From the IMG/VR virus record IMGVR_UViG_3300043442_000948: a stretch of 59,250 bases of DNA; one strand, given 5' to 3'. The notes beneath the pieces are model-generated. The model was not told the origin of the DNA. It saw only the letters and a program-made list of their open reading frames with translations, and did no database searches. A program made the position numbers and the translations under genes. Below are positions 1,660 to 50,328 of the stretch, one piece after another. Source of the stretch: an uncultured virus (IMG/VR IMGVR_UViG_3300043442_000948) (lineage: Duplodnaviria > Heunggongvirae > Uroviricota > Caudoviricetes). Position 1 is the first letter of the stretch. Each line of letters opens with the position of its first letter.

Positions 1660-1698
1660 TCTGGTGTACTAAATGTAGGGTAGGTGTCTTTAAAAGTT

Positions 1699-2266: not shown

Positions 2267-2293
2267 TATTCAACTTTATACTGAGGTTTAGGT

Positions 2294-3968: not shown

Positions 3969-4001
3969 ACGACCCAACTCCTACTGAGTTGACGGCCATT
4001 T

Positions 4002-4013
4002 TTGCATGACGGT
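4002..4013 (+). repeat. 12-bp direct repeat TTGCATGACGGT, copy 1 (candidate integrase arm site)
   Basis: Identical copy at 4829-4840. Confidence 0.6.
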
Positions 4014-4066
4014 CGGCGGTACATCAAGGGAGGCTGAATGTTCTAGCTATTGCTCAAGCACTTACC

Positions 4067-4108
4067 GGGCGGTTAGCTCAGTTGGTCGGCGCCTGCCTTA
4101 CAAGCCGG
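4067..4108 (+). pseudogene. 5' half tRNA-Val(TAC) fragment (candidate att-related sequence)
   Basis: GGGCGGTTAGCTCAGTTGGT identical to the first 20 nt of the tRNA at 4149, then CCTGC-CTTACAA-GCCGG anticodon arm; no T-arm or 3' acceptor strand. Confidence 0.75.
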
Positions 4109-4148
4109 CAACAGCTGATTATCGGCTTATTTTTAGTGCGTTATAAAC

Positions 4149-24306: not shown

Positions 24307-25719
24307 TTACATAATAGTGCTAGCACGTTGGGAAAGCGGGCTACGTTCACCTTTAATTAAAGTGATATGCCCAGCCAAAGGCTCGTCCTTCCAACAGTCA
24401 ATCGCGTAGGTCAAACCATTGCTACTAGCATCCAAGTAAGGGTCGTCAATCTGGTCAATATCCCCTAGCAGCACAACTTTTGTATCGTCGCCCGCGCGGC
24501 CAATGATTGTCTTAGCTTCTTCCGGGGTTAAGGACGCCGCTTCATCAATCAAAATGAACTTATTGTTGTACGTCACGCCCCGGATGTAGGCAAGGTGCTC
24601 TTGCTGGATAAAACCCCGCTCGATTAAGTATTCGTGGGGTTTGATTGGAACACTGTTCCGGGAGTTCCCAAAGAAAGCACCAGAGTCTTGCTTACCACCC
24701 AAGATAGCGTCTAAACAAGAAAAGAACGGCTTCATCCAAGGCTCAGACTTTTCTTCTATGTCCCCAGGTAGAAAGCCTTCTTTGACACTGTGGTGAACAA
24801 ACTTCCGGCTGATCAGAATCTGGTCGTACAGCTTAAGATCTAAGACCGCGTGTAACGCTCCTAGAAGCGCGATAAACGTCTTACCAGTACCAAGAGACCC
24901 ATTGATAGTTACAAGTGGGATACCGGGGTCTAGAAGCAGTTCTAAAGCCATTTGCTGCTCCCGGTTGCGGGCCCCTTTAGACCCCATCAAATGCTTCCGG
25001 TCTGGAATCAAACGTAGGTAAGTTTCCCCCCTTTCATTAACCTTGGCAATCGCCAGCGCGGTCTGCTTAGAATCTTCTATTGCCTCCAAACAAACCAGCT
25101 CATTAGGAAATAGTCCCATTTCATCTTCATCTTCGTCGATGGCTAATTCCTTTTCACTGTATAGATAATTGATTAACTCCTTTTCTACTTTGATGTAACG
25201 CGTGCCGGTGTATAAGTCATGCACACTGACCTTATCACTTAGATAGTCTTCCGCCACAAGCCCGTGGACTCCAGCTTTAACCCGCAGGTTAATATCCTTC
25301 GTTACTAGAATCACCGGCGCGGGGCTTTCTAAATCAAACAGCAGCCAGTACTGTAGTAACAAAAGCCGGTTGTCTACCTTTTCATCATATGCGGGCGGCA
25401 TAAATGCTAGGTCAGGTTCCCGCCCTTTACTAACATTCTCGTAAGACAATACTTTAACTAGCCCGCCGCTATCATTAGCAGTAACCCCTTCACCAAGGTC
25501 GCCGGCTAACCTTAACTCTTCCAAGTTCCGAATAGCCGCCCGCGCCGCTCTCCCTACTGCTCCATCAGCTTTCTTCTTATTATCCAACTCTTCTAGAACA
25601 TCCAACGGAATAATCACAGTGTTCTCTTCAAACAACCACAGAGCATTGGGGTCGTGGATTAAAACATTGGTGTCTAAGATAAACGTCTTAGTTAACGTGG
25701 TCGACGCGGGGCTTTCCAT
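24307..25719 (-). CDS. phoH: PIN-PhoH (PhoH2-like) protein
   Basis: ILDTNVLIHDP, VLEELD, DN, TKDINLR (PIN); GSLGTGKT, GFLPG, YIRG, IDEA, GD.DQID, ERS (PhoH). Confidence 0.92.
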   Translation of the reverse strand: MESPASTTLTKTFILDTNVLIHDPNALWLFEENTVIIPLDVLEELDNKKKADGAVGRAARAAIRNLEELRLAGDLGEGVTANDSGGLVKVLSYENVSKGREPDLAFMPPAYDEKVDNRLLLLQYWLLFDLESPAPVILVTKDINLRVKAGVHGLVAEDYLSDKVSVHDLYTGTRYIKVEKELINYLYSEKELAIDEDEDEMGLFPNELVCLEAIEDSKQTALAIAKVNERGETYLRLIPDRKHLMGSKGARNREQQMALELLLDPGIPLVTINGSLGTGKTFIALLGALHAVLDLKLYDQILISRKFVHHSVKEGFLPGDIEEKSEPWMKPFFSCLDAILGGKQDSGAFFGNSRNSVPIKPHEYLIERGFIQQEHLAYIRGVTYNNKFILIDEAASLTPEEAKTIIGRAGDDTKVVLLGDIDQIDDPYLDASSNGLTYAIDCWKDEPLAGHITLIKGERSPLSQRASTIM

Positions 25720-25866: not shown

Positions 25867-26253
25867 TTATCCAGCAGCGTTCAAAGCCATGGCGGCTTCT
25901 TCTATCCCAACACTAGTATCCTCTAATACTTTATCCTTATCTAGAAGCTCAACTAAACACCCCGCCGCGGGGCTTTCTAAATTAACTAACTCTTTTAGCT
26001 TACTACTAGAACGAAACACCACAGCCCGCCGCGCCGGGTGCATAATCATCTCACCATTACTGGGGTTAACACCCCGCCGCGGGGCCTTATTAATAACTTT
26101 AAACTTTCCAAACCCAGACAAGAACACCGAACCCCCGGATAGTAACTCATCTGTGAATAAACCCAGTAACTCATTCACCAAACGCCCCGCGGCGGCTTTA
26201 CTAACCCCAGTACGCTCCACAATCAAACTAACTAAGTCTGCTTTAGTTACCAT
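25867..26253 (-). CDS. HU-family DNA-binding protein with C-terminal extension
   Basis: TKADLV, V.L.GFGKF, R.GVNP.NGE, V.F..S..LKELVN; extended -10 TGCTATAAT at 26293-26301. Confidence 0.9.
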   Translation of the reverse strand: MVTKADLVSLIVERTGVSKAAAGRLVNELLGLFTDELLSGGSVFLSGFGKFKVINKAPRRGVNPSNGEMIMHPARRAVVFRSSSKLKELVNLESPAAGCLVELLDKDKVLEDTSVGIEEAAMALNAAG

Positions 26254-26484
26254 TGATTTTATTCCCATTCCTACAAACAACGAATAAGCTCTATTATAGC
26301 ATTACCTAGAAGAATAGAGTAGATAGGTATTAAACAAGCAGAATAGGCCTTACCATGTATATTAGGGGGTGACCTACTGTGGGCACAGAAGGCACCCCCG
26401 AATGCAGCCCCTTTTATAGTTGTTTTACATAGGTAGACCGTTTTTTAGCTTGTAGAGCGGTTCATTTTTGTTTAGTAATGTGAA

Positions 26485-26572
26485 AATTATGAAAGAATTA
26501 TGAAAGAATTATGAAAGAATTATGAAAGAATTATGAAAGAATTATGAAAGAATTATGAAAGAATTATGAAAG
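26485..26572. repeat. tandem repeat (AATTATGAAAG)x8
   Basis: Eight exact 11-bp units in a ~600-bp non-coding gap. Confidence 0.95.
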
Positions 26573-26771
26573 CTATATTCGCAATAAGAGCCTAGTGTTC
26601 TCAACAAGCTATTGCACCCAAAAATGCCAAAGGCAACTCTCCATGGGAGACCAATTTTGTTGAGAATCAGGGCATTTTTATTGACAGTCATTTGCAATAA
26701 GGGCCTTAAAACTAGTGAAATCAGGGGTCGGGGGATGGATTTTGCCACTTTTATGGCGGCTGTTCATCCCC

Positions 26772-28655: not shown

Positions 28656-29228
28656 TTACGCTTTTACAGGACGCCGGGTCATTGTGCTGACCGACTCCAG
28701 TTCAGCTTCTGTTGGCTGTAGGATTTGTACGAACTTGGGGTATTTAAGTTCATGCAGAATCCGACCACCAATGTGCGGTGGCGCATGGCGACGGACAGAC
28801 CCGTCAGCACGACGCTTGGTGAACAAGTAGTCACACTGCCATTGCATGTCCAGCCGGTCTGACCGTGACCACTGGCGGTATTCACCACCAAGCCACAGGT
28901 TAGCTTCGGCTAGATTCAGGAAGTTATTCGTCGGACTGGGTACCGACTGGTTGACCTTGAGCACTTGCCCAGGTACCAGGATGTCGAGCATAAGGGTGTA
29001 GAAGGTTTTGCCTAGAACGGCGTCCTTTTCAAACACATCTTGCTCGATTTCTTCGTGGGCTACCCGGAAGCTCCGGGCTTCAAGGAGTAAACTGACGGGA
29101 ATGAAGTCCCAGGCAGTCGGATAGTACCGACGGAGGACATCATGTAGCAGTTCGCTTTGAACAGCACGGGCTTTGATTAGTCGGGTAGTGTAAATTTCCA
29201 TTGTTAGTTTCCCTATTGTTTTGGTCAT
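28656..29228 (-). CDS. hypothetical protein
   Basis: 190-aa ORF directly downstream of a promoter-like motif; start may be ATG 29201. Confidence 0.7.
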   Translation of the reverse strand: MTKTIGKLTMEIYTTRLIKARAVQSELLHDVLRRYYPTAWDFIPVSLLLEARSFRVAHEEIEQDVFEKDAVLGKTFYTLMLDILVPGQVLKVNQSVPSPTNNFLNLAEANLWLGGEYRQWSRSDRLDMQWQCDYLFTKRRADGSVRRHAPPHIGGRILHELKYPKFVQILQPTEAELESVSTMTRRPVKA

Positions 29229-29256
29229 TCTCTTTTCTTTTTTCAGGCACTAGGAC
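29229..29256 (-). promoter_or_regulatory. phage promoter-like motif
   Basis: GTCCTAGTGCCTGAAAAAAGAAAAGAG; variant of 30210-30240. Confidence 0.65.
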
Positions 29257-29300
29257 GTCAAAGTGGCTATTCAACGTGCAGTTAAGCGCCTGTTCAGTAG

Positions 29301-30169: not shown

Positions 30170-30209
30170 GGTTTTGAAGGTTCCTGTTTGATTTGGTTTG
30201 GTTTTTCTT

Positions 30210-30240
30210 CACTCCCTCTTCTATTTTCAGGCACTAGGAC
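30210..30240 (-). promoter_or_regulatory. phage promoter-like motif (reference copy)
   Basis: GTCCTAGTGCCTGAAAATAGAAGAGGGAGTG about 40 nt upstream of ATG 30169. Confidence 0.7.
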
Positions 30241-30271
30241 AGGTGACTGTCCCCGTGTAAAGAACACGTGG

Positions 30272-31825: not shown

Positions 31826-32230
31826 ACAACACCAGTTTAAAGTCATGGGTGTCATGGACATCATACAACCCAGGAGCCATTGCCGAAGCAAGAGGACTAT
31901 CCTAGGACCGTAAACCACAGTGCTGACTAACACCGTGGGGTTTTGGCGTTTCTCCGGGAAATTTTGCTAACACCAGTACCATCACGTACCAGGCTGATGT
32001 TAACTAGCCAAGCAAAGAGCCTTTATTTCTGCCGCTTACAGGGCACGGGTCTGTACGCTACCGGTCTTTCAGTCACGGGGACGACGATCCCACCTTTATA
32101 GTTTAGAGTCTGCAGGCTGACAGACTTGTTGTGTATTCAAGGGCGTTTTCGGTGACGCGCTGCCGTTCGGCAACTCGGCACGTAAGCTATTATTCCACAA
32201 CTGACCAGCCACGGTTGCCCTGGTCATTTT
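31826..32230 (-). ncRNA. candidate structured non-coding RNA(s)
   Basis: No long ORF; serial hairpins incl. TTGC-TTCG-GCAA tetraloop and pseudoknots; lies downstream of promoter-like motif 32234-32264. Confidence 0.45.
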
Positions 32231-32233
32231 GTC

Positions 32234-32264
32234 CACTCCCTCTTCTATTTTTAGGCACTAAGAC
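32234..32264 (-). promoter_or_regulatory. phage promoter-like motif
   Basis: GTCTTAGTGCCTAAAAATAGAAGAGGGAGTG (29/31 identical to 30210-30240). Confidence 0.7.
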
Positions 32265-32296
32265 ACGTGTCTTACCGTTATAGAAAAGGGGATGGT

Positions 32297-32560: not shown

Positions 32561-32582
32561 CGTTAGTCTCCACTTGTCCTAT

Positions 32583-32609
32583 CTCTCTTCTATTTTCAGG
32601 CCCCAGGAC
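32583..32609 (-). promoter_or_regulatory. phage promoter-like motif
   Basis: GTCCTGGGGCCTGAAAATAGAAGAGAG upstream of 32560. Confidence 0.65.
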
Positions 32610-32620
32610 GTATAACTAGC

Positions 32621-34501: not shown

Positions 34502-34543
34502 GTTGTTGTTTAGTTGCCACTTTCTTAACCTCTAAATCTACTT

Positions 34544-34564
34544 CACTCCCTCTTCTATTTTCAT
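34544..34564 (-). promoter_or_regulatory. phage promoter-like motif
   Basis: TGAAAATAGAAGAGGGAGTG identical to the core of 30210-30240. Confidence 0.65.
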
Positions 34565-34675
34565 ATAGTAAGATTCATCAGCTGTAGCAAATAAAAAACC
34601 TGACCGCTAGGGAAAGTAAAACCAGCTGTGAACCTTAAAAAAGGCGCCGCCCCCGGAGGGGCGACAGCTTATTGA

Positions 34676-35553: not shown

Positions 35554-38500
35554 CTAGTGGCGGTTAGCTTTCAGCCACTCGAAGTATTCTTTGTCAACGT
35601 GGCCTTGGCTGCCGATGAACCAGTTGACAGCGCGGGGGTCGCTGACATCAAAGTACACGTCTTCAATTTTTGTAAAGCGGCTTAGCATGACGTACAGGGC
35701 GGCTTCACGGGTCAAAGCAACAGTTTCACCTTTGATGTCTTCGAATACACCACATACGCCGGGGTTAGTTAACGTTAACCCCTGGCACGAATTGATCGTG
35801 GTGGCGAAGTCAGCGTGCAGCGGCAGCTGGATGAAGATGCCACTCAATGTGCCGTTAGGAAGACGACGACCAACGAACTCATGGGCGCCGATTGCAAGGG
35901 GTTTGCCATCACCGAAGTCCACTTCAACGTGGTTAGTGGCTAGTTTGGTCACGCGCCCACGGCTACCATTAGCAGCGATAAGAGTTTTCTTACTGTTGAT
36001 AATTTGGTAGATGTTCTTGCGTAACTTAACCGGCATCCCAATGGCTAAGGTTAAGTCCACGGGAATAGGACGGAACTCCCGTAGCCACTTGTCATTAGTA
36101 GCGGCTTTATAAACGACCTGACCACCGTAGGTACGTTTAGCTGTGGTCATCTCGGCAGTGCGACGCTCGTTAATATCTTCAACACGTTTGTTGTTGAAGT
36201 AGATATAAGTCACGTCGTCCAAGTTGCTAGGGCGTAACCCTTCTAAACACTGCTTAAAGCGCTCTAAAATGACGCCGGTAACTTCACCTGTTTCACGCAG
36301 GTGGTCAAGGGCTTCTTCAAAGGCACGATCGTCTTTTTGACGGACGCCAGTCTGAAGTTCAATGACCTTAAACTCACCAAACATGTAAGGCAGTGTGCCT
36401 AAATAGCCATCGATGACGGCTTGTTTGTAGAATTTCACTGCGTCTTCGCCGATAACTGGCAGCTGCCCACCATCACCGACCAACAGCACTTGGGCAAGCG
36501 GGTTATAGTACTTGATGATTTCCATCACGATGTAGAGTATCCGTGCGTCTAACATCGATACTTCATCAATTACAACCCGTAGCCGTCCTGTTTTACAGGT
36601 TAGGTTTTCCTTTACATAGTCGTTGACTTTGGCAAGGGCAATAAGTTTGTTAGCCCACTGCCAATCGTTTTCGTTGCCGCGGTCGTCACTATCAAAGGCG
36701 ATACCTAAAGCGAAGCCACTGTTGACAGTGCCTGACGCTTCTACTGCACCATCTTCCAGGTTACCGGCTAGGTTCATTACGCTGATACCAGTGGTACCAA
36801 ACGCAACAACCTTGTCACCAGCGGCAGCCCAACGGTGGATGCACTCACTGGTGATATAGGTCTTCCCTGTGCCAGCTTTACCAGTTAAGAAGACATGGTG
36901 CCCTTCGGCAACCAAGTCCATGAACTTCTGTTGGCAAGTGGTGTAGTTACCAGGGGTGAACTCAACCTTAACTGGCAGCGCTGGGGCTTTAACGGACATT
37001 ACAGTCATTGCTGTTGCTTCCTCGAGAGTAGGGACAATAGTCACTTCTTTTTTCTTATTGTCCACTACTGGTGTGGCTTCAACATCAATGGTCTGCACCA
37101 TGGTTACTGTACCATCTTCAGCTATTTCTTCCTCTTCCGTAGCGATAACGCCGTTCGGTGTTGGGTTAATAATAGGTTCCAACACAGAGGAAGCCCCGGA
37201 GGGCTCAGCAGATTCGTGGGAAATAGAATCTGCTGTGGTGGTGATTTGCTGAACCGGTTCAGGACTAGCGGCTTCACCACCATCGCCGCTGGGTTTGGGT
37301 TCGGGCTTAGGAGTAGGGCTACCACCAGTGGGTTCTTCGGGCTCATTCTTATCGTCAGAGCACGAACCGTTCGTGGGGTTAGTATAGCCAAACTTAGACA
37401 GCAGTTCAGCTACAGCCTCTTCTCCGAATTGAGCTCGAAGATTAGCAACGACGGCTTCTGCTTCAGCTAATCGTTTGACATAGGCTTGTTCTTCTGCTTT
37501 ACGTTTAGCTATAGCTTCCGCTTCGGCCTTGAAGTTAGCTAGCAGTTCATCACTAGTAGCAACGTGTGCTAAAGGTGACACCACAGGGCTAACAGGTTGC
37601 TGAACAACTACAACCGGCTCAGGGTCAGCTATAGGTTCAGTAGTAACCACGGCAGCAGGAGTAGTACCGTTGATGGCAGCATTGAGTTCTTCAGTGCTAA
37701 CTTCGTCGTCGAAGTAGGCAGCGTCTAACTCATCGTAAATCCGGTCATCTTGGTCTTCATCAGCAGGCTCGGGAGCTACTTCAGCTGGTTGTTCAGCAGT
37801 AGCGATAGCATTGTTGATTTCATTCCAACTAACTTCTTTACCATCATCTTCGTACTCACCACACCACCCATCGTCGTAGTCATCAGGGCAATCGGGCATT
37901 TCACGGTCATAGAAGTCTACACCTAAGTCGTCTTGGACTTCGTCAGGTACTTCTGTTTTAGGGCCATTGTTGACGTTTGTTAGCTCTTGGTTAAGCCAAG
38001 TAATCTCCTGAACGGGGGTTAGTTCAGGTTTAGACTCGACAACCGTGGCAGTGATGTCAACAATGGGGTCTAGTTCCATGTTGTTATCCTCCTGTTTACC
38101 GGCGCGTAGCTCCAGCTTGTAACGGAAGTAATCCATAGCTGGGCGCACGCCATCTTTATCGGCAAAGATATAACCAGCGCCGGGCATATGTGTTAGTACA
38201 TCGCCCAGGACTTCCGGCTGGAAGATTTTGCGCATTACCCACAGTACATGGGAGTGGTCAAAGGCGCCTTCAGGTATTTCCAACCCGTTGATGCTATTAC
38301 CAAGGGCGAACCAGTGGTATAGCTGACGGCTGATGAATTGGTGAGCACCAACTTTGCACTCGTCCCATTCGTTTTCACCGTTCAAGTAGCCTTTGAAGTA
38401 ACCAACCCACTTACCACGACCCATCTCGAATTGGGCTAGAGCGGTGTACATAATGAACTCGCTCAAACCAGCACCGGCCCAAGCGTGCTCACCGTACAGA

Positions 38501-41500
38501 TTGCCTTTCTCCCAACACTTCACGTCAGCGACTACGTTAAAGCAGTTGGCCATTGCAGCAGCAAGAGTATGGTTACAACCAATATCTTCTACTGCTTCGG
38601 CGAACGCAGGTAGCGTTGACTCAGTGATGTAATTGGCAACCTTCCGTTTTTCAATGGTTTTGGGTTTAGCAATCTTCTCCATAAAGGACTTCCACATGTG
38701 CCACGCAGCGGTACTGTAGGCACCAAGAATGGTTTCGTACAGTTCGGCTACTGCGGATACGATTAGGAAGGCCCGGTCGCTAACAGCCCATTGGAAGCGT
38801 GCAGGGACTTCAATACCAGCTTTGGTTAGTGCAGTGACGATATCTACGATGGCTTCAGCCATTTGATAGATACCATAGGATACACCAACCATAGTGGCAA
38901 AGACTTCCCGGGCACGGGCGTTGATAGCAGAGTAGCTGGTTACAGTACGCAGGACTACAGGCTGCTCTTTGCCTTTTTCGTCTTTCGTCGTGACGATGAC
39001 ACCGTTTTCCTCTTTATAAAGTTCGATGTCCTTGACGCTGTGCTGTACAGCGCCACCTACACAGATGTAAGAACCTAGCTGCTCCGCAATTTTGTAGCGG
39101 CTGCGTCCGTTCTTAGGCATCATGTAGTCGCCCCAGTAACACCCTTTGCGGAGCATTACGTCAAAGGCAGACTCACCTTCGTTCCGACCAACAGCGTTGG
39201 CACGGAATTCTAGGGCGGACTCGGCGGTGGTTAGAGCTGCGAACAGACGGGCTTTGGTGGCAGCGTCTTTCCAAGGCAGAATGGCTCCGTAGGTACCGTC
39301 ACCATCATCATCCCCAGCCGTCATCATGTTGTGCGCGATAGCACTGGTGATGCGGACATCAGGGTAGATGCTGTCAACGCGGACGATGGGCTCTTTGGTT
39401 TTACGGTCTACCAAAGGTTGTCCGTCGCGGTACTCGATGTACTCTAAATCGCTGGGAGCGTAGTAGAAGTTCTCGAGTTCCTTAACTGTGTTGGGCAGCA
39501 AGGTGGTTAGCACCAGAGGGCCGTCGGGCATCGGAGCCCGGGTTTCGTGGTTGAAGATGGGTGTCTTGTAGGCCTTGTGACCTTTGGACACGGCTTGAGC
39601 GAACGTAGGACAATCGTTCAAGCGGTGTTTAATCACGTCTTCGGTGTACTCACCTGTTTCGTGGTCGAAAGCAGGGTGTTCATACCCACGAACGTGGCGG
39701 CTCATCAAATCGAACTGGCGGCCAGTGTCGGAAATCAGCAACATCCAGGTAGGAATGTTGGGCAGCGACAGGGCCTTACCACCAACCAACGTGTCGCCGT
39801 TGATGTTCTTGGCGGTATTACCAGATTCGACTAAAGCCCGCAGCTTCCCACGGATGCGGTTGACATCAACACCATTAGGCATCTGACCAGCTAACAGCAC
39901 GATTAGGTACTGATAGAAGAGCATACCCGACATGGTGTCTAAGGATTCTTCACCAGACTTCAGTGAGTTCAGGTTGAACAACAACGGGGCGTAGATGTCA
40001 ATGTGACCTACTTTGGTTGTTGTATCTTCGCCGTACTCAGCGTCAAAGTCAGCGTCGAAGTAGACGTCTTCGTCATCCGTTTTAGGCTTAACCAAGTGGT
40101 TATCCTTCAGGGCACGGGCGCTGGTGGTTTCGACACGAAGAATGACGTTGCGAAGTGCAAAGCAAATCCGCTCGAAGAGTAGATTGTCCTCGGGGTCATT
40201 CAAATCGATACCCGCCAACAACGCGTGGACTTCAGCCAATCCTTGTTGGTTAGGAACAGCTTTAGACACGAAGTCACCACGGACTTTCTCTGTTTTCCAA
40301 GAGCAGAGGTTGATGACTTTGTTACCAGCGGTGCCCATGCTGCCGTCGTAGCCAGCGCAGAGCAGTTTTGCACGATAAGGCTCTTCCAAAGCACGGACGG
40401 CTTGACCCATCATGATTTCACGGATGGTGTCGCAGCCGAGCAAGCGGTAGTTAGAACGCATAGAGGAACCTAACTGAGTAGATTCACCAGCGGCCTCTTT
40501 AACCGTGCTGGACTCGAACAGCACCACATCATAGATGGGGCAGTCGCAATCTTCACGACCAACCATGGCCCAGCTACGTTGTTTGTAGCGTAGGACTTTA
40601 GTGTGGTTGGGGTTCATATAGAACCAGAAGATGTTGGCCCGCTCTTCAGCTTCCGTACCGTAGACCGTGGGGTCATTGAAGTTTACATCGGAGTAAACAA
40701 TAATGTCGCGGTTTAGCTCGGCGCCTTCTTCGTCCTGACGGAGGCGGGTACAGTTGGTCACGTTGTACATCTTGCCAATTTTGGTGGCAGCAGCGTACTC
40801 TTTGAGTAGTTCCGTACCGTAGTCACCGGCGCCAAGTTGTTGCCAGTCAACGGTAATCTGACGACCAAAGAACGCACAGAAGCGTTGCTGCAACTCATCA
40901 TATAGCCCGTCAGCGATAGCAACAGGGCACTCAACTAAGTAGTCAAGGTGACGACGCCCTTGTACTTCAAAGTTGATGTCCATAGCGCGGTTGACCATCC
41001 ATAGGAACTCTGGATGGACGCAGTCAGGGTTCAAGACAAACGTATGACCCATGATTGGAATTAACCAGTGTAGGGTGTCCGCTTTGATAACGTCTTGAGT
41101 GTAGACCACATCTACCAAACGCTCGGTGACGCCGGGGTTATCAGCGTTGAAGATGAATTCCTTCTTGACGCTGGCAAGCATCCCTTTGGCTACAGAAGAG
41201 CGAATCTTCGGCCAGTCTTCCTTCCAGGTGATAGCCCACTCAACGACCAGCTGAGTGCCTTCTTTCCCACCAACCATAGAGCAGACTTCGTAGGTACGAA
41301 CCCACTCTAGGTAACCCTTGATGTCGCGGGTCTGTTTAATAGCCCGGAGGTAGGGGCGGTTGCCTTCCAACATCACGCTGGTGTCGACGTGGGCTAACAC
41401 ATCACCGCAGCCTACTTCTTGCAACGCTTTGGGTCGGTAGTAGGTGTAGTTAACACCGTACTTCGACTCTTGAGTCACATCATAGCCACAGCCCATAAGG

Positions 41501-44500
41501 ATGGTGCCAGTGTCAATATGTAAACCAGCACCACGTTTGTACATCGAAGACTTGTAGGACATCTTCTTGGTTACAAACCCAGTGGGGCGGTGCTTCTTGC
41601 CACTGACGTGCCATGCTTCACCAGCAGGGCCGATGATGGTCATACCTAAGATGACACGCTGAGCAGTACCGATTAGGTCGCGTTCTTGCGTGTATGACCG
41701 GTAACCGCCGCGGATGCCGTAGAATCCAGGCGGCACAGTGCGTGCGGCTTGGTTATCATACTTAATCCCACGACCGTTTTCTAGCGCGGCAGCAAGTAAG
41801 GGACGACCTTCAACATCGATGACGCAACCGGAAGGTACAGACGTTGCTGCACGGAGCAGGATACGTTTTGAACCCTTTTCAACTTTCGTATTAAGGTTGA
41901 CAAAGAAGCCGGCTAAGTCACCAGAGTAACCAAGCTTAGCAACCCGCTTCTTCAGTCGGGCGTACCACTTCTTGGCATGCTTGGCTAGCAAACCACAGTC
42001 AACGTGGACTAGGTCACCGCGGAGGCCCGTTCCTTTGTTGAAGCTAAAGCCCATGCTATAGCATTCAGCAATACGGAAGATAACGGTCTCCAAGATACCG
42101 GAGTCTTTGACTTCCCCGCGCAAGCGGTAGCCACCGTAGTTGGTGGTCAGCTTCTCTGAACCTGCACCAGCGAAGTCCTTGACTTTTACCTTACCGTTGA
42201 CCACGGTCATTAGTTCAGGCTTGTGGATAGTCTGAACTTCCACTTCCTTACCTTCGACCTTCTTGGTTTCGGTGGTGAGCATCGTACCCACAATGTTGAA
42301 GCCACAGGCCTCAGCGTGGATAGTAGGGCCAGTCATGTTGACGGTACCGTCGCTCGTCACCGGGAAGTATTTGTCATACTTCGTGTGGAAGGCCTTCAGG
42401 TTGGAACTTATAGTGCGGCTATCCATACAGCTCATCAGCTTGCCGCTAAGCAAGGCTATGTAGCCATAATAGAAGAAGCGCATAAACGCTCCGTAGGAAG
42501 ATGTTGCCACGACGTCGTGAACAACTTTGACCATACCTTTCTTGGTCTTTTTGTTTTCCCACAGGACATCAATCACACCTTTGAACATGCGGGTGCGGTC
42601 GTTATCCACAACACCAATGTCATCAATGATGTAGACCAAACTACCATCTTCAATGTTGATGGCATTATCCACAAACTTGATAATTTTATCGGCGTTGGTG
42701 GTGTCAGTGGCATCATCCGGGTCAATTAGGTAACTCCGAATGATATTGACCAAGGCCTCAAAGTGCCCAACTTGCCAGTTGTAACCGCTCATCATGGGCA
42801 GGTTACCGATGGGGTCAACCCCGATACAGGCAGCCAAGTAAGCGTGGCAAGCGTAAGCAGCGGGACGTAGACCATAGTTAAGGTTCATAGTCCCTTCTTT
42901 GGTCACGGTATTGCTGCTAACCCAGCCAGCAAACTTCTCCATGCTAAAGTCTTGCCAGTTAACAGCGTTGAGTTGTTTAGAATCAACAGTTGTTAGGGCA
43001 GCGTAGTATGCCTTCAGCTCATCTGCCATGGAAGTATCGACGGCAGGAGGGGGAGTCAAAGCGTCAGCTAAGCTGGTCATATCTGGCTTGACTGAGGCAT
43101 TGTAGACGCTACGTTGGTACTCAGGGCCACCGTTGACCAAGTTGTCATAGGCTTTGCGAAGGGCCTGCATAAACAAACCGTCTTTACCAGTCCAACGGTC
43201 TGGAGCTTTAACAAGCTGCCCGTTCTTAATCAGGTTGTGGGTACAACCAGCTAAGAACTTAGCACCGCCGTGGTCGGAGATAGCTTGCAGTAACGGGCGG
43301 TGTTGCACCAACTTAGCTTCAAGTATCTCTACCATAAGTCCTAAGACATTGTCATCGGCTAGAGACTCCAAGCTTACCTTTGTCGCTTGGTAAGCATCTT
43401 CGGAGCGTTTGTAGTCAACGCCGAAGAACTTAATAGGCAACGCAGCAAGGTTGCTTAGCTGGTGGCCCAGCCCTGTTTCATAGGAGCTGATGTTAATCCC
43501 CACAGGAACCTCCGGTTTAGTAGGAGCAACTTCTTCTTTCTTGGTTACTTCTACTTGAGCGACAGGCGGCTTGCCAAGATTGACTTCAGTCAGGATGGAT
43601 GTCGGGCCATTCTTGAATCCTTTATCCAAACCTTCAACCAACCAGCTACGACCATATTCGCACAGGTCAAGACGTGGGTCGCCTTTGACTTTCGTATCAA
43701 CGAAGTCACTCTGCGGGAACATAGCTTTGGTTGTCTTGGTCTGACGCAAGAATCCATCACCGTACAGCGTGTCAACAATCGCTTCGTAGCAATGACTGTT
43801 GAAGTGGGTGATAGCACTGGGGTCAAACATGGCGCCTGGGTCATCCACAGACAGGAAGGTCATATGGTTGCAGTAGAAACGTGATTGAATCACTTTCTTG
43901 TGATTCTTAACGTCACCCACTACCTGGCCATTGACGACATCAACGTTGAGTTGACGCTGTTTAAAGCGCGGGTCAAACTCAGCATCTGCATCAGTCGCCT
44001 TACCAAAGCCATGTACACCATTGACTTCGGCTACGACCATAAACCAATAGCGTTTATTCGCTTCTGGCATACAGTTGAGCAGCCCGTCGGATTTGATGAC
44101 GTTGCTTCCCAACTGTTTAGGCTCAGTGCCATTTAGCAACAACTCTTTCAGCTTCCGGCGGCGGTCGGTTGATAGTACCGTGGGGGTAACGTCAACGTGA
44201 GCAGTCATCGCCAGTTTATCTTCAATTTTGTTTAGCTCATTGAAGACTAGCTGGATTTGAGCGTTACGGATGTTGGAGTTACGGTACCAGCCCTTGGTGC
44301 CAAAGAAGAAGTTGGCACAAGTCGGAGCTCCCGTCCGGTAGGCACGGGCTAGGAATACCATAACAGGTTCGTCATCACCCATTAGGTTGCCTAGGCCGGT
44401 GTGATTTAGCTTATGCTTTTCGTTTACCACATTGGGTAGACCTAACTCCTCGAAGTAGGTTTCCGTGTCGAACTGCCCACGAACCGGTAAGTTCAGGTTA

Positions 44501-47500
44501 CATGGGATAATTTCGTTGGCGTCGTTACGCATTAGGGGCACAAACCCCACAGAGTAACCCAAGACGTGGGCGTCGTTGAAAGCAAGCGTGTTGCTCATAC
44601 GTGCCACAATCTTGGTGCCAAACAAGCAATCAATGATTTCATTGACCATGTTTACCTCCTTAAGGTTAGGCTCTCCCTCTACTTTTTTCACGCCCGACTG
44701 CTGATTAACAGCGTCAGACGTTGGGGAAACGGGTCGACCTCCCGCCGTAGCACCAGCGTCAGCTGGAACCCCATTCATGTTCATTTGTAAATCACCAGCG
44801 CCGTATTTAGCTTTGGCAGAGGCCATGATAGCATCCGCTTGCGCTTGTATGGTAATTGGGACTACAGGAACCAGTGGTTCACCATCCAGGTCACCAAAGA
44901 ACCAGTCGTCCATAAACAAGTTCTCTTGGTCTAAGCCACGGTAGCGGTGTTTTGCTGGTTTATTCTCTAACAGCTGAGGACGTCCGAACTGCCAGGTATT
45001 CATTACCACTTGGAATAAGCGGTCACCGGTCGTTAAATCTATAGACCAATAACCAACTTCTTCGGTGTGATAAAGCGGCCCGTCCTCACCTGGGACACAT
45101 ATATCGAAGTAAATCGTACCTCGTACTGTGCCGCTAGCACGTCGGTTTTGGATAATAAGGCTAATACTGTCACCAGTCCAGTACTTAACCTCTTTCTCTT
45201 CCTTGGCATATATCATTTCACTGATAGTTTGGAAGAGCCAACCTTCTTGGATAGGCACCGCTTTTTCATACCCCATCTTTTCGCTGGGGCGAGCCACTTC
45301 CAACCGCTGTACGTTGTGTTGGTAGGCCAGGTAGGTGTTCCCAGCAACGTCCTCTACGTGGTAGTCATCTGTGCCAAGAGTACGCACGTAGTAGGTGAAC
45401 CCATTAACGTCCATTCCAACACGTTTGTTTTCTGGGTCATGTATAAGGTCACTATTCGGGCGACCAAAATGACCTATCAACAAGTCAATCGCACGCCGGT
45501 TAATCTGACGCCCTGGAAGTACATACTTAGGTGCCTCAATCACACCTGTTTGAGGGTTGTAAGATACTTTCTCTAACTCATGGACGTAGCATTTGCCTTG
45601 CTTGGCCCGTGTAGTATAGGTACGGTAAGTCAGACTCTTGTTAGCGCCTAAGTCGTAGACGTCGTAAGGCCCGAAACTATCACCGAAGCTATCCTGATAG
45701 CCAGCGCTATTAGACGGGCAGTACATTAAATAATGTCCGTCAGTGCGCTTTTCACCACTAAGCGGGTTTTCTGCGAGACCATCGGCGTTTACACCAACTA
45801 ACCCATACTCTCCACTGAGTATAGGTAACCCATGTTTGTAGCCGCGGGCTAAGCAAGTGCGGTGCCACCAGTCAGCAAGTTCGTGTAACTTACTGTTTAG
45901 TAATTCGACGCTTCCATAGACCCGGTCTACGAATAACCCTGATACTTCTGTGTAGTCAGCGTCAGCATACATCAACCGCAGTTTAGCGCGAGCTTGATAC
46001 CCCTTACCATCAATAGACCAAGGTTCACCAACGGTCCATAGGAACAGACTTGCTCCGTAGAACTTCTTGTCCCCATCTATTTCTATGAGGTCAAGGTCAT
46101 ACCCTTTGGGGTCAAACTCTTCTGTACGTTGGCAGCTCTTGTAATAAATACTGTTGCCTTGGTCATAAAGAGCGTACTCTTCTGTTTCCCAAACTTTGCT
46201 TTTTCCGTTAGTATCAACAGAAAGAAGCTTAGATACTTTATCAGCAGGAACACCTGCATTGATAAGTACCTTGCTAAGTTTGGGTGAACGGGAGCCTAGC
46301 TCTTTAGCACGCTCTTTGGTGAGTTGGCGGTCTTTCCATTCTTTATGGGTTAACCGAATGCCATACTGAGCCTTGATTAAAGCCAACATGGAGGCAGTTT
46401 CGTCAGGCAATGGCAATACGTCGACGATAGGAACCAATTGCATCTGAAGATCACCAACAGCGCCGTATTCACAACGGACGGTGTTGACGACTGTTTCAGC
46501 AACCATATCCTGAACGTCAACGAGCTGCCATGCAAACAACTCATCCATCACTTCGGCTGCCCGTTGATAAGCCTCTACCGCCAACTGGTGTTGGTGGTAA
46601 TCTTCTTGCCACGGTTCCAGCGGGTCGTCCCACTCATCAAACTGGTCTTCTTCACCGACCGGCCCTTCTTCAAATAAGGGCTCATACGTCCAGCAGGGCT
46701 TCCAGTCCTTCTGCTGATCACGTTTGACACCACCATAAAGATGGTTCAGGGCCGATTGACCATCTTTACGACGGTTATACGACCCGTCCGCCATCATTCG
46801 GCGGTAGTGAACTGATAAGGGGAGTTCATCTTCAGTCCGCCGAGTGCGACGGAACTTGCCAGTCTTAGCCATGGGGGTTTCGACTCCATTAGCTAACTGA
46901 AATCGTGAGTTGCCCTGGCGGAGGGCGTCGGACTTCATAGTACGGGTAACAGGCCGCTGGGTAGTCACAGTTGTGACCGTGGTCCGTTTGACCGGTGGGG
47001 TCACTACTTTATAGGTAGTGACTTTGGTTACTTGTCCGCCCCGGTGGGCATAAATACGAAGCCACTCGAAGTAGCCGAGACGGTCTGCTTTCCAGACCGT
47101 TTTGATTTTGCGCTGCTTACGTGCAGCAGCGCGCTGCTTGGTCGTCAAGGGACGACTGAGTTTGCTACCAGAATACTTTTGCCGGCGCTTGCGATTGGCG
47201 CGGGCAATCATTTGATTGATTTTGCGGGAATTCATTTGTTTAGCACGAACGGTTCGTGCGATATAGGTTTTGGCAATAAAGCCCTTACCGCCCCGACGAG
47301 GGGTGCCATTGCGGCGGGCAAGAAGGTGGGTGACTGAAACTAAACTGAAGCGGGCACGGTTCAATACACGGCGGGCTTGTTTATGGTTGTCGCGGGCAGT
47401 AGCGATGACCGTTGTGACATCATCAACTGTAGGGGTAGTAATAGTAGGGATAGTGGCCCGGACTTTCTTGACTAAAGACTCTGCCCACTCACGTCGGAGG

Positions 47501-47913
47501 TCGCAGTTATTGACGGGCTGGATACCATCACCATCAGGTAAAACATGGAATTGCACCGGCAGGGCCAGCAGAAGATTTAGAACAAGCAGCCCGCTTATGC
47601 GGGCAATGCGGGCTGGCGGGAGCGCCAGCTGGGGATTGGTAGCTGCGTCGATGGCAGCGTTAAATTCATCAAAGGTTCGCTGACGACGGGCTTCGGCATC
47701 AGCTGCCACTGCGGGGAGTCGCAGTTGGGTGGGAGCAGTGAAAGGTGTACTGCTGGGGGTAGACTCATCCCATGGTCCGAAATCACATATCGGAGTGTCC
47801 CACGGGTCGGCAATATAAATGTTTAAACAACCACCTATCAGAAAGCCGATGTGTGTGGGGCTGATTGCAGCGGTGATAGCGGAAGCAGCAACAGAGAATT
47901 GTTTGAAAGACAT
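35554..47913 (-). CDS. giant 4119-aa multidomain protein: NADAR-like domain, putative two-barrel RNA polymerase, C-terminal Pif1-like SF1B helicase
   Basis: Uninterrupted ORF, AGGA before ATG 47913; LSN..F.G..Y..SE.AYQA.K..M..IL.AK..QH (43141-43497); KIRSSVAKG..VDVVY (41101-41208); RAP (39532-39540); GDDDGD (39298-39315); GKAGTGKT (36859-36882), VIDEVSM, VGDGGQL, RQ, NG.RG, TINSCQGLT, YVMLSR. Confidence 0.8.
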   Translation of the reverse strand: MSFKQFSVAASAITAAISPTHIGFLIGGCLNIYIADPWDTPICDFGPWDESTPSSTPFTAPTQLRLPAVAADAEARRQRTFDEFNAAIDAATNPQLALPPARIARISGLLVLNLLLALPVQFHVLPDGDGIQPVNNCDLRREWAESLVKKVRATIPTITTPTVDDVTTVIATARDNHKQARRVLNRARFSLVSVTHLLARRNGTPRRGGKGFIAKTYIARTVRAKQMNSRKINQMIARANRKRRQKYSGSKLSRPLTTKQRAAARKQRKIKTVWKADRLGYFEWLRIYAHRGGQVTKVTTYKVVTPPVKRTTVTTVTTQRPVTRTMKSDALRQGNSRFQLANGVETPMAKTGKFRRTRRTEDELPLSVHYRRMMADGSYNRRKDGQSALNHLYGGVKRDQQKDWKPCWTYEPLFEEGPVGEEDQFDEWDDPLEPWQEDYHQHQLAVEAYQRAAEVMDELFAWQLVDVQDMVAETVVNTVRCEYGAVGDLQMQLVPIVDVLPLPDETASMLALIKAQYGIRLTHKEWKDRQLTKERAKELGSRSPKLSKVLINAGVPADKVSKLLSVDTNGKSKVWETEEYALYDQGNSIYYKSCQRTEEFDPKGYDLDLIEIDGDKKFYGASLFLWTVGEPWSIDGKGYQARAKLRLMYADADYTEVSGLFVDRVYGSVELLNSKLHELADWWHRTCLARGYKHGLPILSGEYGLVGVNADGLAENPLSGEKRTDGHYLMYCPSNSAGYQDSFGDSFGPYDVYDLGANKSLTYRTYTTRAKQGKCYVHELEKVSYNPQTGVIEAPKYVLPGRQINRRAIDLLIGHFGRPNSDLIHDPENKRVGMDVNGFTYYVRTLGTDDYHVEDVAGNTYLAYQHNVQRLEVARPSEKMGYEKAVPIQEGWLFQTISEMIYAKEEKEVKYWTGDSISLIIQNRRASGTVRGTIYFDICVPGEDGPLYHTEEVGYWSIDLTTGDRLFQVVMNTWQFGRPQLLENKPAKHRYRGLDQENLFMDDWFFGDLDGEPLVPVVPITIQAQADAIMASAKAKYGAGDLQMNMNGVPADAGATAGGRPVSPTSDAVNQQSGVKKVEGEPNLKEVNMVNEIIDCLFGTKIVARMSNTLAFNDAHVLGYSVGFVPLMRNDANEIIPCNLNLPVRGQFDTETYFEELGLPNVVNEKHKLNHTGLGNLMGDDEPVMVFLARAYRTGAPTCANFFFGTKGWYRNSNIRNAQIQLVFNELNKIEDKLAMTAHVDVTPTVLSTDRRRKLKELLLNGTEPKQLGSNVIKSDGLLNCMPEANKRYWFMVVAEVNGVHGFGKATDADAEFDPRFKQRQLNVDVVNGQVVGDVKNHKKVIQSRFYCNHMTFLSVDDPGAMFDPSAITHFNSHCYEAIVDTLYGDGFLRQTKTTKAMFPQSDFVDTKVKGDPRLDLCEYGRSWLVEGLDKGFKNGPTSILTEVNLGKPPVAQVEVTKKEEVAPTKPEVPVGINISSYETGLGHQLSNLAALPIKFFGVDYKRSEDAYQATKVSLESLADDNVLGLMVEILEAKLVQHRPLLQAISDHGGAKFLAGCTHNLIKNGQLVKAPDRWTGKDGLFMQALRKAYDNLVNGGPEYQRSVYNASVKPDMTSLADALTPPPAVDTSMADELKAYYAALTTVDSKQLNAVNWQDFSMEKFAGWVSSNTVTKEGTMNLNYGLRPAAYACHAYLAACIGVDPIGNLPMMSGYNWQVGHFEALVNIIRSYLIDPDDATDTTNADKIIKFVDNAINIEDGSLVYIIDDIGVVDNDRTRMFKGVIDVLWENKKTKKGMVKVVHDVVATSSYGAFMRFFYYGYIALLSGKLMSCMDSRTISSNLKAFHTKYDKYFPVTSDGTVNMTGPTIHAEACGFNIVGTMLTTETKKVEGKEVEVQTIHKPELMTVVNGKVKVKDFAGAGSEKLTTNYGGYRLRGEVKDSGILETVIFRIAECYSMGFSFNKGTGLRGDLVHVDCGLLAKHAKKWYARLKKRVAKLGYSGDLAGFFVNLNTKVEKGSKRILLRAATSVPSGCVIDVEGRPLLAAALENGRGIKYDNQAARTVPPGFYGIRGGYRSYTQERDLIGTAQRVILGMTIIGPAGEAWHVSGKKHRPTGFVTKKMSYKSSMYKRGAGLHIDTGTILMGCGYDVTQESKYGVNYTYYRPKALQEVGCGDVLAHVDTSVMLEGNRPYLRAIKQTRDIKGYLEWVRTYEVCSMVGGKEGTQLVVEWAITWKEDWPKIRSSVAKGMLASVKKEFIFNADNPGVTERLVDVVYTQDVIKADTLHWLIPIMGHTFVLNPDCVHPEFLWMVNRAMDINFEVQGRRHLDYLVECPVAIADGLYDELQQRFCAFFGRQITVDWQQLGAGDYGTELLKEYAAATKIGKMYNVTNCTRLRQDEEGAELNRDIIVYSDVNFNDPTVYGTEAEERANIFWFYMNPNHTKVLRYKQRSWAMVGREDCDCPIYDVVLFESSTVKEAAGESTQLGSSMRSNYRLLGCDTIREIMMGQAVRALEEPYRAKLLCAGYDGSMGTAGNKVINLCSWKTEKVRGDFVSKAVPNQQGLAEVHALLAGIDLNDPEDNLLFERICFALRNVILRVETTSARALKDNHLVKPKTDDEDVYFDADFDAEYGEDTTTKVGHIDIYAPLLFNLNSLKSGEESLDTMSGMLFYQYLIVLLAGQMPNGVDVNRIRGKLRALVESGNTAKNINGDTLVGGKALSLPNIPTWMLLISDTGRQFDLMSRHVRGYEHPAFDHETGEYTEDVIKHRLNDCPTFAQAVSKGHKAYKTPIFNHETRAPMPDGPLVLTTLLPNTVKELENFYYAPSDLEYIEYRDGQPLVDRKTKEPIVRVDSIYPDVRITSAIAHNMMTAGDDDGDGTYGAILPWKDAATKARLFAALTTAESALEFRANAVGRNEGESAFDVMLRKGCYWGDYMMPKNGRSRYKIAEQLGSYICVGGAVQHSVKDIELYKEENGVIVTTKDEKGKEQPVVLRTVTSYSAINARAREVFATMVGVSYGIYQMAEAIVDIVTALTKAGIEVPARFQWAVSDRAFLIVSAVAELYETILGAYSTAAWHMWKSFMEKIAKPKTIEKRKVANYITESTLPAFAEAVEDIGCNHTLAAAMANCFNVVADVKCWEKGNLYGEHAWAGAGLSEFIMYTALAQFEMGRGKWVGYFKGYLNGENEWDECKVGAHQFISRQLYHWFALGNSINGLEIPEGAFDHSHVLWVMRKIFQPEVLGDVLTHMPGAGYIFADKDGVRPAMDYFRYKLELRAGKQEDNNMELDPIVDITATVVESKPELTPVQEITWLNQELTNVNNGPKTEVPDEVQDDLGVDFYDREMPDCPDDYDDGWCGEYEDDGKEVSWNEINNAIATAEQPAEVAPEPADEDQDDRIYDELDAAYFDDEVSTEELNAAINGTTPAAVVTTEPIADPEPVVVVQQPVSPVVSPLAHVATSDELLANFKAEAEAIAKRKAEEQAYVKRLAEAEAVVANLRAQFGEEAVAELLSKFGYTNPTNGSCSDDKNEPEEPTGGSPTPKPEPKPSGDGGEAASPEPVQQITTTADSISHESAEPSGASSVLEPIINPTPNGVIATEEEEIAEDGTVTMVQTIDVEATPVVDNKKKEVTIVPTLEEATAMTVMSVKAPALPVKVEFTPGNYTTCQQKFMDLVAEGHHVFLTGKAGTGKTYITSECIHRWAAAGDKVVAFGTTGISVMNLAGNLEDGAVEASGTVNSGFALGIAFDSDDRGNENDWQWANKLIALAKVNDYVKENLTCKTGRLRVVIDEVSMLDARILYIVMEIIKYYNPLAQVLLVGDGGQLPVIGEDAVKFYKQAVIDGYLGTLPYMFGEFKVIELQTGVRQKDDRAFEEALDHLRETGEVTGVILERFKQCLEGLRPSNLDDVTYIYFNNKRVEDINERRTAEMTTAKRTYGGQVVYKAATNDKWLREFRPIPVDLTLAIGMPVKLRKNIYQIINSKKTLIAANGSRGRVTKLATNHVEVDFGDGKPLAIGAHEFVGRRLPNGTLSGIFIQLPLHADFATTINSCQGLTLTNPGVCGVFEDIKGETVALTREAALYVMLSRFTKIEDVYFDVSDPRAVNWFIGSQGHVDKEYFEWLKANRH
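37360..37376. repeat. dispersed palindrome copy 5 (inside CDS)
   Basis: GCACGAACCGTTCGTGG. Confidence 0.8.
47243..47259. repeat. dispersed palindrome copy 6 (inside CDS)
   Basis: GCACGAACGGTTCGTGC. Confidence 0.8.
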
Positions 47914-48029
47914 GATGTTTTTCCTACTTGACTTGGTTGAGTTTGGGTTAACGACGTCCATGCTTTTAACCGGAGCTTGACTGAACCGGGCGCACCTAAG
48001 CAAAAACCGACGCGGCTGTTAATTAGTGA

Positions 48030-48078: not shown

Positions 48079-48201
48079 GAACAGACGAATCGGCTGTTGG
48101 TGGCATTAAAATACCCTCCAAAGGAGGGTACTCACCAAACCACCAGCAGAACCAACTCAATGAATGAGTGGGTCTACTGGTGGAAAGTGATTAGTTATTT
48201 G

Positions 48202-49325: not shown

Positions 49326-49505
49326 AAATCAAACCCCCGTTTTGCACTAAAACGGGTAAAAGTCCCCACTGCCGTTGGAATCACTTCCATTGGTTTTATG
49401 CGCGCCAAGGCCCTTGCGGGCGGGTCATCACGCCTGTTTACACGGTCCAGCTGACCTACACCTCATCCCACACATGCCCGCAGCGAAGCGGTTGTCTAGG
49501 GCAAT

Positions 49506-49534
49506 AAAAAACCCACCCCCGTAAGGGGTGGGTT
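49506..49534 (-). terminator. intrinsic terminator
   Basis: AACCCACCCC-TTACG-GGGGTGGGTT then T run. Confidence 0.7.
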
Positions 49535-50187: not shown

Positions 50188-50328
50188 GGTAAATCCCTAG
50201 TCCGGGGAAAAGAAGAACCGGCTGTCTAGGGCAATAAAATACCCACCCCTTGCGGAGTGGGTGGGTGGGTAGTGCAGGTATTATTAACGTCCCCCTGCAC
50301 AGGGACGGCAAGCAGCTTAGGAGGGGTA

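Follow-up and report, generated by a model that had tools for sequence, protein, structure and literature searches.

The 59,250-nucleotide (nt) stretch of DNA analyzed here (the window) derives from an uncultured virus of the class Caudoviricetes (IMG/VR record IMGVR_UViG_3300043442_000948). Its phage genes encode tail fibres, a baseplate-wedge component, a sigma-70-type factor, PhoH, ThyA, a deoxynucleoside monophosphate (dNMP) kinase, a RecA/UvsX-like protein and an integrase. The subject of this study is a giant minus-strand gene whose product of 4,119 amino acids (aa) combines a predicted single-chain two-barrel RNA polymerase (RNAP) with a superfamily 1B (SF1B) helicase (Table 1). The gene lies in a single open frame (35554..48003), which would encode 4,149 aa if the TTG at 48003 were the start. 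The ATG at 47913 is the likelier start, because an AGGA sequence lies 8 nt upstream of it and because a homologue with 75% identity (P0003) begins with the same MSFK as the 4,119-aa version. Given its length of 12.4 kb and the 31 homologue clusters that were found, the open frame is no chance feature. The coordinates and motif positions that an original prediction had read from the DNA letters all proved accurate in the 4,119-aa numbering. They comprise YKSCQ at 591 (SC 591-594), ARAKL at 641, DRVYG at 663 and GINISSYE at 1472 in the N-terminal part; KIRSSVAKG at 2236, VDVVYTQD at 2267, TRAPMP at 2791 and GDDDGD at 2867 in the polymerase; and the Walker A sequence GKAGTGKT at 3678, DEVSM at 3783, VGDGGQLP at 3812 and SCQGLT at 4042 in the helicase. 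The composition likewise agreed with the basic stretch (aa 190-400, rich in R, T and K), the acidic stretch (aa 420-490, rich in E and D) and the acidic, proline-containing linker (aa 3290-3640, rich in E, A, V and P) that had been described. When the gene was compared by megablast with 50,697 phage records, no match was obtained.

The polymerase assignment is based on predicted structure and on conserved motifs. An AlphaFold2 model of aa 2041-3240, calculated from the family alignment, reached a mean predicted local distance difference test score (pLDDT) of 85.1 and a predicted template modelling (TM) score of 0.85. When the model was compared with the PDB by Foldseek, all 50 matches listed were second-largest RNAP subunits (best E value, 1.6e-4). 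A second, Foldseek-independent search (VIA; 48,161 chains, best 50 rows listed) ranked QDE-1 of Neurospora first (Z 10.4, root-mean-square deviation 4.7, 366 residues aligned), followed by gp96 of Thermus phage P23-45 (Z 8.9 and 8.8), P74-26 gp62 (8.0), maize RDR2 (6.8) and then many beta and beta-prime subunits. Twenty of these best 50 rows were two-barrel polymerases, and the other 30 were short helical matches to a long helix (model residues 945-1128). Beta subunits mapped to model residues 10-613 and beta-prime subunits to residues 661-1190. A further structural comparison ranked the matches in the same order (QDE-1, 10.4; gp96, 8.8; P23-45 gp64, 8.4; AtRDR2, 8.3), with a Z of at least 5 for 505 of 997 chains. 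In a second, less reliable model (aa 1000-2100), whose pLDDT was 75-90 at aa 1629-2000, residues 1627-2016 weakly matched the N-terminal halves of beta subunits, which filled seven of the best eight rows (Z 3.2-4.3). Since the matches were of uniform identity, since the beta-like part preceded the beta-prime-like part and since the most conserved residues coincided with known catalytic motifs, we predict that aa ~1620-3440 form a complete single-chain two-barrel RNAP, in which the beta-like barrel comes before the beta-prime-like barrel. The original prediction had proposed such an enzyme from its motifs; the superposition of both halves of the modelled fragment on two-barrel RNAPs and the conservation of the motifs agree with this proposal.

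To collect homologues, 1.84 billion representative proteins were searched exhaustively by HMMER, the query being aa 2100-3299. The resulting 31 clusters consist nearly all of giant proteins of 2,000-4,500 aa and make up a separate, rare family, in which the helicase fusion occurs in about two thirds of the clusters. The GDxDGD motif was present in 26 of the 31 clusters; DxDGD was lacking in P0015, of 1,663 aa, and in four shorter proteins (P0018, P0023, P0032 and P0033). In a MAFFT alignment, the K-x-R-S/G-x-x-K, QDxxKxD, RxP and GDxDGD blocks stood in register across the family, and R2238, D2274, K2277 and D2279 were at least 90% conserved. The second residue of DxDGD was variable (D, N, T, S, A, F, Y, C, L or W), in contrast to the constant aspartates, three in number, and glycine; therefore, the three metal-binding aspartates are the positions that are kept. 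Judging from the motifs, the basic barrel residues (K2236, R2238, K2243 and the K2277 region) may face the active site and contact the substrates. The window protein also matched the published filter [RK]xP-x(20-100)-DxDxD (PMC10770324, Supplementary Data 4) by R2792-A-P and D2868-D-D-G-D2872. Among the window open reading frames (ORFs) scanned, [RK]xP followed by DxDGD was found in the giant ORF only; the looser [RK]xP...DxDxD pattern was also found in a 409-aa ORF (13180-14409) and in the PhoH-like ORF (24307-25719).

The conserved residues bear on a further explanation, namely that the protein is an injected anti-defence "polyvalent" protein, with a polymerase-like core that has lost catalysis and serves as a scaffold or a DNA clamp. 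Such a role would suit an architecture of many swappable enzymatic modules, and the fragmentary homologue P0018 carries GDFAGG in place of GDxDGD. However, clusters with no more than 20-30% identity to one another have retained both the aspartate triad and the basic residues of the barrel. This points to selection on catalysis, and we consider a dead core highly improbable.

A tblastn search of aa 1650-3300 against the 50,697 cultured-phage records gave no match at an E value of 1e-3 or below. A word-indexed homologue search returned the protein itself and one other protein, and its alignment-based version was dominated by helicases. No match was obtained in a single-protein scan of viral contigs or in two scans of genome contigs, and hence no host genome emerged from the latter. 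None of the database sources gives any family member an informative name.

At the level of predicted viral structures (BFVD), the best match was a protein of Microcystis phage MaMV-DC (E 4.8e-15, TM score of 0.59 on the target, 1,142 columns), which is probably ORF65L, judging from the protein length (2 x 839). ORF65L (L018 9227-14317, minus strand; 1,677 aa, annotated "hypothetical protein") resembles the window protein in having RTP1335 followed by DADGD1372 but differs from it in lacking a helicase and any Pfam domain. Its similarity to the family was marginal (hidden Markov model [HMM] E value of 0.0017 in a two-sequence search; hhalign probability of 53% over 72 columns), and the family profile found no match in the whole MaMV-DC and Ma-LMM01 records. 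MaMV-DC is a myovirus of cyanobacteria, in keeping with the hints described below that the window comes from a cyanophage. A second MaMV-DC protein, ORF82L (L019 6655-17343, minus strand; 3,560 aa), contains RSP followed by DFDGD and is likewise without a Pfam domain or helicase.

The C-terminus was identified by sequence comparison and reads as a sound, intact SF1B helicase of the Pif1/Dda/RecD type. Pfam profiles matched aa 3661-3874 (AAA_30, 49.1 bits with a cut-off of 27; AAA_19, 46.0 with a cut-off of 25.1; PIF1, 28.3 with a cut-off of 25.9), the Dda-like helicase family phrog_325 of PHROG matched aa 3620-4087 (1e-39), and the PDB sequence search returned exclusively Pif1-type chains, including the Bacteroides Pif1-like helicase, over aa 3660-4084. 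The complete SF1B motif set (Walker A, Walker B and motifs III and VI) was readable, and family membership suggests a 5'-3' polarity. The window helicase resembles Pif1, Dda and RecD2 but differs from them in forming the C-terminal end of a chain of 4,119 aa; its nearest relatives in cultured phages were stand-alone RecD/Dda-like proteins with 25-28% identity (147 records). The Pif1-like fusion had been part of the original prediction, and both the helicase matches and the conservation of the fusion in the family support it.

A C-terminal helicase was present in 21 of the 31 homologue clusters (20 by a filter and P0011 by Pfam). All three IMG/VR relatives showed helicase matches inside giant ORFs, of 4,239, 3,452 and 3,186 aa. 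Thus, a polymerase with intact catalytic signatures is tethered to an SF1B motor by an acidic linker of ~300 residues, and this pairing is conserved. The relatives carry various inserts, either between the polymerase and the helicase or before the polymerase: NADAR, DUF4326, a 2-oxoglutarate-Fe(II) oxygenase (AlkB-like), RNase H, an amidoligase and DUF7831.

Table 1. Features of the giant gene and its surroundings (window positions; residues in the 4,119-aa numbering)
Feature	Position	Strand	Remarks
Whole gene	35554..47913	minus	4,119 codons and stop; ATG at 47913, alternative start TTG at 48003
SF1B helicase, aa ~3650-4119	35557..36966	minus	Pfam, PHROG and PDB matches; motifs at 3678, 3783, 3812 and 4042
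Acidic, Pro/Ala-rich linker, aa ~3440-3640	36994..37593	minus	Interval between polymerase and helicase; occupied in homologues by NADAR, DUF4326, 2-oxoglutarate-Fe(II) oxygenase, RNase H or DUF7831
Predicted two-barrel RNA polymerase core, aa ~1620-3440	37594..43056	minus	Beta-like half at aa ~1627-2650, followed by the beta-prime-like half at aa ~2700-3440
G2867-D-D-D-G-D2872	39298..39315	minus	DxDGD metal-binding motif; D2868, D2870 and D2872
Beta-prime-type R2792-A-P2794	39532..39540	minus	RxP preceding the metal site by 75-76 aa
Beta-type barrel motif, aa 2236-2279	41077..41208	minus	K2236-I-R2238-S-S-V-A-K2243-G ... Q2273-D2274-x-x-K2277-x-D2279
Candidate degenerate NADAR-like stretch, aa 1472-1592	43138..43500	minus	Only the first ~40 residues match NADAR profiles
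Conserved block, aa ~1020-1310	43984..44856	minus	Modelled at a pLDDT of 50-80; structural matches no higher than Z 3.1
Accessory domain, aa 490-754 (SC, ARAKL, DRVYG)	45652..46446	minus	Matches phrog_29046 (unknown function)
N-terminal leader, aa 1-490	46444..47913	minus	Ala/Leu/Pro-rich start, then Arg/Lys-rich, then acidic stretch
Terminator-like hairpin	48105..48130	minus	TACCCTCC-TTTG-GAGGGTA, then TTTTAAT; separates the giant gene from its upstream neighbour; member of the three-copy family of intergenic repeats
Full-length sigma-70-type factor	19803-20834	minus	Regions 1.2, 2, 3 and 4

The N-terminal 1,600 residues include two conserved blocks (aa ~150-490 and ~1020-1310). The leader block (aa ~150-490) was kept in 11 of the 31 homologue clusters. 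The following module (aa 490-754) is the sole part of this region with relatives in cultured phages: it matched hypothetical early-region proteins of Leptolyngbya, Phormidium and Plectonema podophages (Pf-WMP3 gp08, 28% identity, E 2e-12). It is homologous to stand-alone early-region proteins of T7-like cyanophages such as Pf-WMP3 (gp08) and cyanophage PP, and these sequence relatives are a hint at a cyanobacterial host. In P0003, this stretch is swapped for other modules, including an HExxH. The second AlphaFold model (aa 1000-2100) had an overall pLDDT of 56, and its leader part and NADAR-like stretch were unusable. A structural search with aa 1100-1360 gave matches of Z 3.1 at most.

NADAR domains remove ADP-ribose from DNA bases. 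The original prediction had placed a NADAR-like domain at aa ~1473-1591, and this assignment was weakly supported. The stretch (aa 1472-1592) is common to the window protein and P0003 only. The first ~40 residues resemble NADAR profiles: a custom NADAR HMM built from five homologues scored 12.8 bits at aa 1483-1514 only, and hhalign gave a probability of 70.8% over 40 columns. A protein atlas placed Phage_30_3 and NADAR clusters at 0.88 for the stretch, below the atlas's own trust line. On the other side, the Pfam gathering score was not reached; Pfam NADAR (PF08719) gave no match at an E value of 1 or below on the whole protein or of 10 or below on aa 1460-1600, and the AlphaFold model was disordered across the stretch (pLDDT below 50). 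A NADAR-like identity is possible but lacks proof. Bona fide NADAR domains by Pfam were found in six homologue clusters, with 61-77 bits in P0003, P0007, P0022, P0028 and P0029, always between the polymerase and the helicase, a position at which the window protein has no NADAR insert.

Several known enzymes resemble the predicted polymerase. QDE-1 (Z 10.4, 351-366 residues aligned) and plant RDR2 (Z 6.8-8.3) have both barrels in one chain but are eukaryotic enzymes of small interfering RNA production with 10-11% identity, no fused helicase and no beta-lobe-like region upstream. The phage enzymes P23-45 gp96, P23-45 gp64 and P74-26 gp62 are single-chain two-barrel RNAPs as well (Z 8.0-8.9, 12-13% identity). 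Of these, gp64 and gp62 are non-virion RNAPs, and gp96 is fused to a tape measure instead of a helicase; it is described as a virion RNAP that is active during DNA entry (available text of PMC10770324). The crAss-like phage phi14:2 encodes gp66 (PDB 6VR4), another giant single-chain two-barrel RNAP, at the end of its structural block, and the protein is packaged in the particle according to the record annotation and the accessible part of the crAss preprint. Its site is DFDID (at 1361), compared to DxDGD in the window family, and 6VR4 was absent among the structural matches listed. YonO of SPbeta is a non-virion late transcriptase. It is also a single chain and has the same motif type (RSP at 492, DNDGD at 535) but differs in its length of 839 aa, in the lack of a helicase and in an RxP-to-DxDGD spacing of 43 instead of 75-76 aa. 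No sequence or profile similarity was found to gp66 (hmmsearch score of -3.1, hhalign probability of 0.1%) or to YonO (-2.7 and 0.04%), each compared as a single-sequence target of low power, and none of the PHROG RNAP families matched the window protein at an E value of 1e-3 or below. Coliphage N4 offers a parallel of another kind, since its virion RNAP is giant (~3,500 aa), particle-borne and expelled into the host to start transcription; its catalytic domain is T7-like and not two-barrel (PMC7824862, available text). Phage polyvalent proteins are similarly injected and multi-domain, with swappable enzymatic modules (PMC5512222), and double-psi barrels and NADAR are mentioned nowhere in that article.

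The position of the gene suggests how the enzyme may be used. Within a minus-strand run that begins with genes for the baseplate and fibres, it is the final large one. In the window and in each of the three related records, including the two with an identity of only 28%, a homologue of the baseplate-wedge component is encoded 6-14 kb upstream on that strand. The original prediction had called the polymerase "non-virion", and this part was not borne out, as the giant gene follows baseplate genes on the same strand in four of four records. Therefore, we lean, on circumstantial grounds, towards a particle-borne enzyme. We infer that the protein would act as the phage's own, host-independent transcriptase, and by analogy with the phages above we judge it most likely, with moderate confidence, that it is a late product delivered with the DNA for early transcription. 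The protein would be made late, packaged in the particle and passed into the cell with the genome, where it would transcribe the early genes as in N4, crAss-like and P23-45 phages. The tethered helicase would open or translocate the entering duplex and hand the polymerase its preferred single-stranded template. This step is proposed because QDE-1, the best structural match, needs the separate helicase QDE-3 and replication protein A on DNA templates. In relatives, the NADAR, DUF4326, AlkB-like oxygenase and RNase H inserts may clear lesions or hybrids inflicted by the host from the template.

Several points weigh against this reading. The Z scores are middling, and the tool warns that best Z values of 7-8 are common for unrelated models; the polymerase case therefore rests on the consistent match list together with the motifs. 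Neither the protein nor the family profile led to recognition of the polymerase part in Pfam, PHROG or PDB sequence searches, with the PDB giving helicase matches only. Five sizeable homologues that bear GDxDGD (P0010 and P0024-P0027) have no helicase and could be either truncated or natural short forms. In addition, Pfam DnaB_C helicases were found in none of the three related records, two of which are at least 91% complete. Finally, the terminator-like hairpin splits the giant gene from the upstream structural genes, and the immediately upstream genes are absent from the set shared with the closest phage relative (L001), with which four downstream genes are shared.

The hairpin and the differing upstream genes would also suit an enzyme of the same kind that stays outside the particle and is synthesized once infection has begun, as SPbeta YonO and P23-45 gp64 are. 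Such an enzyme would transcribe middle or late genes, and its helicase would be a roadblock remover, an R-loop resolver or a termination or recycling factor. The original prediction, too, had taken the enzyme to be non-virion. The giant gene has its own ribosome-binding site in addition to the hairpin, the genes immediately upstream differ in L001, and the five copies of a 30-nt motif downstream (see below) could be promoters for any polymerase. The RNAPs of jumbo phages, moreover, co-occur with a helicase, which in the available text of PMC7824862 is only of the separately encoded SF2 type. However, the baseplate module is found upstream on the same strand in all four records, and both the long conserved leader and the swappable inserts of DNA-repair type are reminiscent of multi-domain proteins that are injected (PMC5512222, in its available part). 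The phage sigma factor already provides a route to reprogram the host RNAP after infection. We therefore regard post-infection synthesis as a possible but rather unlikely alternative to delivery with the particle.

The sigma factor was kept in both near-complete relatives (71% and 47% identity), which fits the use of host RNAP at another stage. No match to an Rpb1-type RNAP was found in the related records, and a T7-type RNAP (PF00940) was not found in them by a search that had no positive control.

The lack of a Pfam DnaB-type helicase in the related records would allow a replication role for the helicase. As a replication machine, the protein would be an analogue of a primase-helicase, the polymerase making primers or origin R-loops and the SF1B helicase unwinding the fork. 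Besides the lack of DnaB_C, a Toprim_2 match was found in one related record only and was sub-threshold, and the window has RecA/UvsX-like, ThyA and dNMP-kinase genes. PolD is a precedent for a two-barrel core serving replication; a PolD-like DNA polymerase was nevertheless rejected as an identity for the core, since PolD DP2 reached only Z 5.7, below the RNAPs. The best structural matches were transcriptases and RNA interference polymerases, and the giant gene lies by tail and baseplate genes, away from the nucleotide-metabolism block. In one related record (G001), a Toprim protein (28.8 kb) and a P-loop protein (30.6 kb) sit together elsewhere, beside a family A DNA polymerase; this was the one related record with such a polymerase, and a family B DNA polymerase was found in none. 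We consider a replicative role improbable.

Further elements were observed around the gene. A 35-nt intergenic element occurs in three copies (48087-48121, 49485-49519 and 50215-50249), which lie after consecutive genes on the upstream side of the giant gene; read on the minus strand, every copy consists of a GC-rich hairpin and a T-run, with the look of an intrinsic terminator, and then a conserved tail. Downstream, a conserved motif of ~30-46 nt with the core GTCCTAGTGCCTGAAAATAGAAGAGGGAGTG is present in five minus-strand copies (29219-29264, 30203-30248, 32227-32272, 32572-32617 and 34537-34582). Its 14-nt core occurs 5 times against 0.14 expected. The copies, one of which comes directly after a terminator, precede small minus-strand genes that have no annotation and lie immediately downstream of the giant gene; they could represent a family of phage promoters or leaders. 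The 30-nt motif was not found in the loci of the relatives (L001-L003). The flanking ORFs of the three IMG/VR relatives had almost no PHROG annotation. An intergenic tandem array of about 9-12 copies of the 11-nt unit ATGAAAGAATT lies at 26456-26587, adjoined by GC-rich hairpin repeats at 25956-26107. Next to the tail-fibre genes, a 1,615-aa protein of many Ig-like (I-set/Ig_3) repeats is encoded at 14452-19299 on the plus strand, with internal DNA repeats of ~255-350 nt period; in sequence it resembles a Hoc-like or fibre decoration protein. A tyrosine integrase gene is located at 2826-3977 (minus strand), and a related 205-kb record (G003) is classed as a provirus by IMG/VR, a combination that hints that these large phages are possibly temperate.

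A more far-reaching version of the particle-borne reading, which we put forward tentatively, is that the helicase replaces promoter-melting factors. A single chain would then pull the DNA in and transcribe it without a sigma factor, single-stranded DNA-binding protein or gyrase: the motor, loaded on the entering genome end, would strip one strand into the two-barrel active site, and the inserts would clean the exposed strand of host ADP-ribosylation or alkylation. The protein would then be a self-sufficient machine for entry, transcription and repair, and the family would be a distinct, as yet undescribed one with remote kin in Microcystis phages, which have been supposed to lack a polymerase. 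The original prediction had pointed to no described example of this architecture. In the literature searched, including the available parts of PMC7886860, the crAss preprint and PMC5780444, we found no two-barrel RNAP-helicase fusion; the comparison extended to these sources, with Iyer and Aravind (2012) and the 23-family RNAP alignments of PMC10770324 outside it. The word helicase is not mentioned in the main text of PMC10770324.

Single-chain two-barrel RNAPs such as QDE-1, crAss gp66 and P23-45 gp96 work on DNA that is single-stranded or already melted, which raises the question of how they reach the template in a duplex. The covalent helicase in 21 of the 31 clusters makes this question directly testable, and the layout may show how two-barrel polymerases open a DNA template without helper proteins. 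The finding adds a polymerase family that Pfam, PHROG and PDB sequence profiles do not recognize and that occurs in phages of 100-216 kb that also encode a sigma factor. Candidate polymerases that lack annotation also come into view in cultured Microcystis phages, whose transcription has been ascribed wholly to host RNAP, in the case of the sister phage Ma-LMM01 to the host sigma-70 RNAP (PMC5780444, available text). Finally, the repair-type inserts of the relatives suggest that early transcription may be linked to counter-defence against DNA-modifying immunity.

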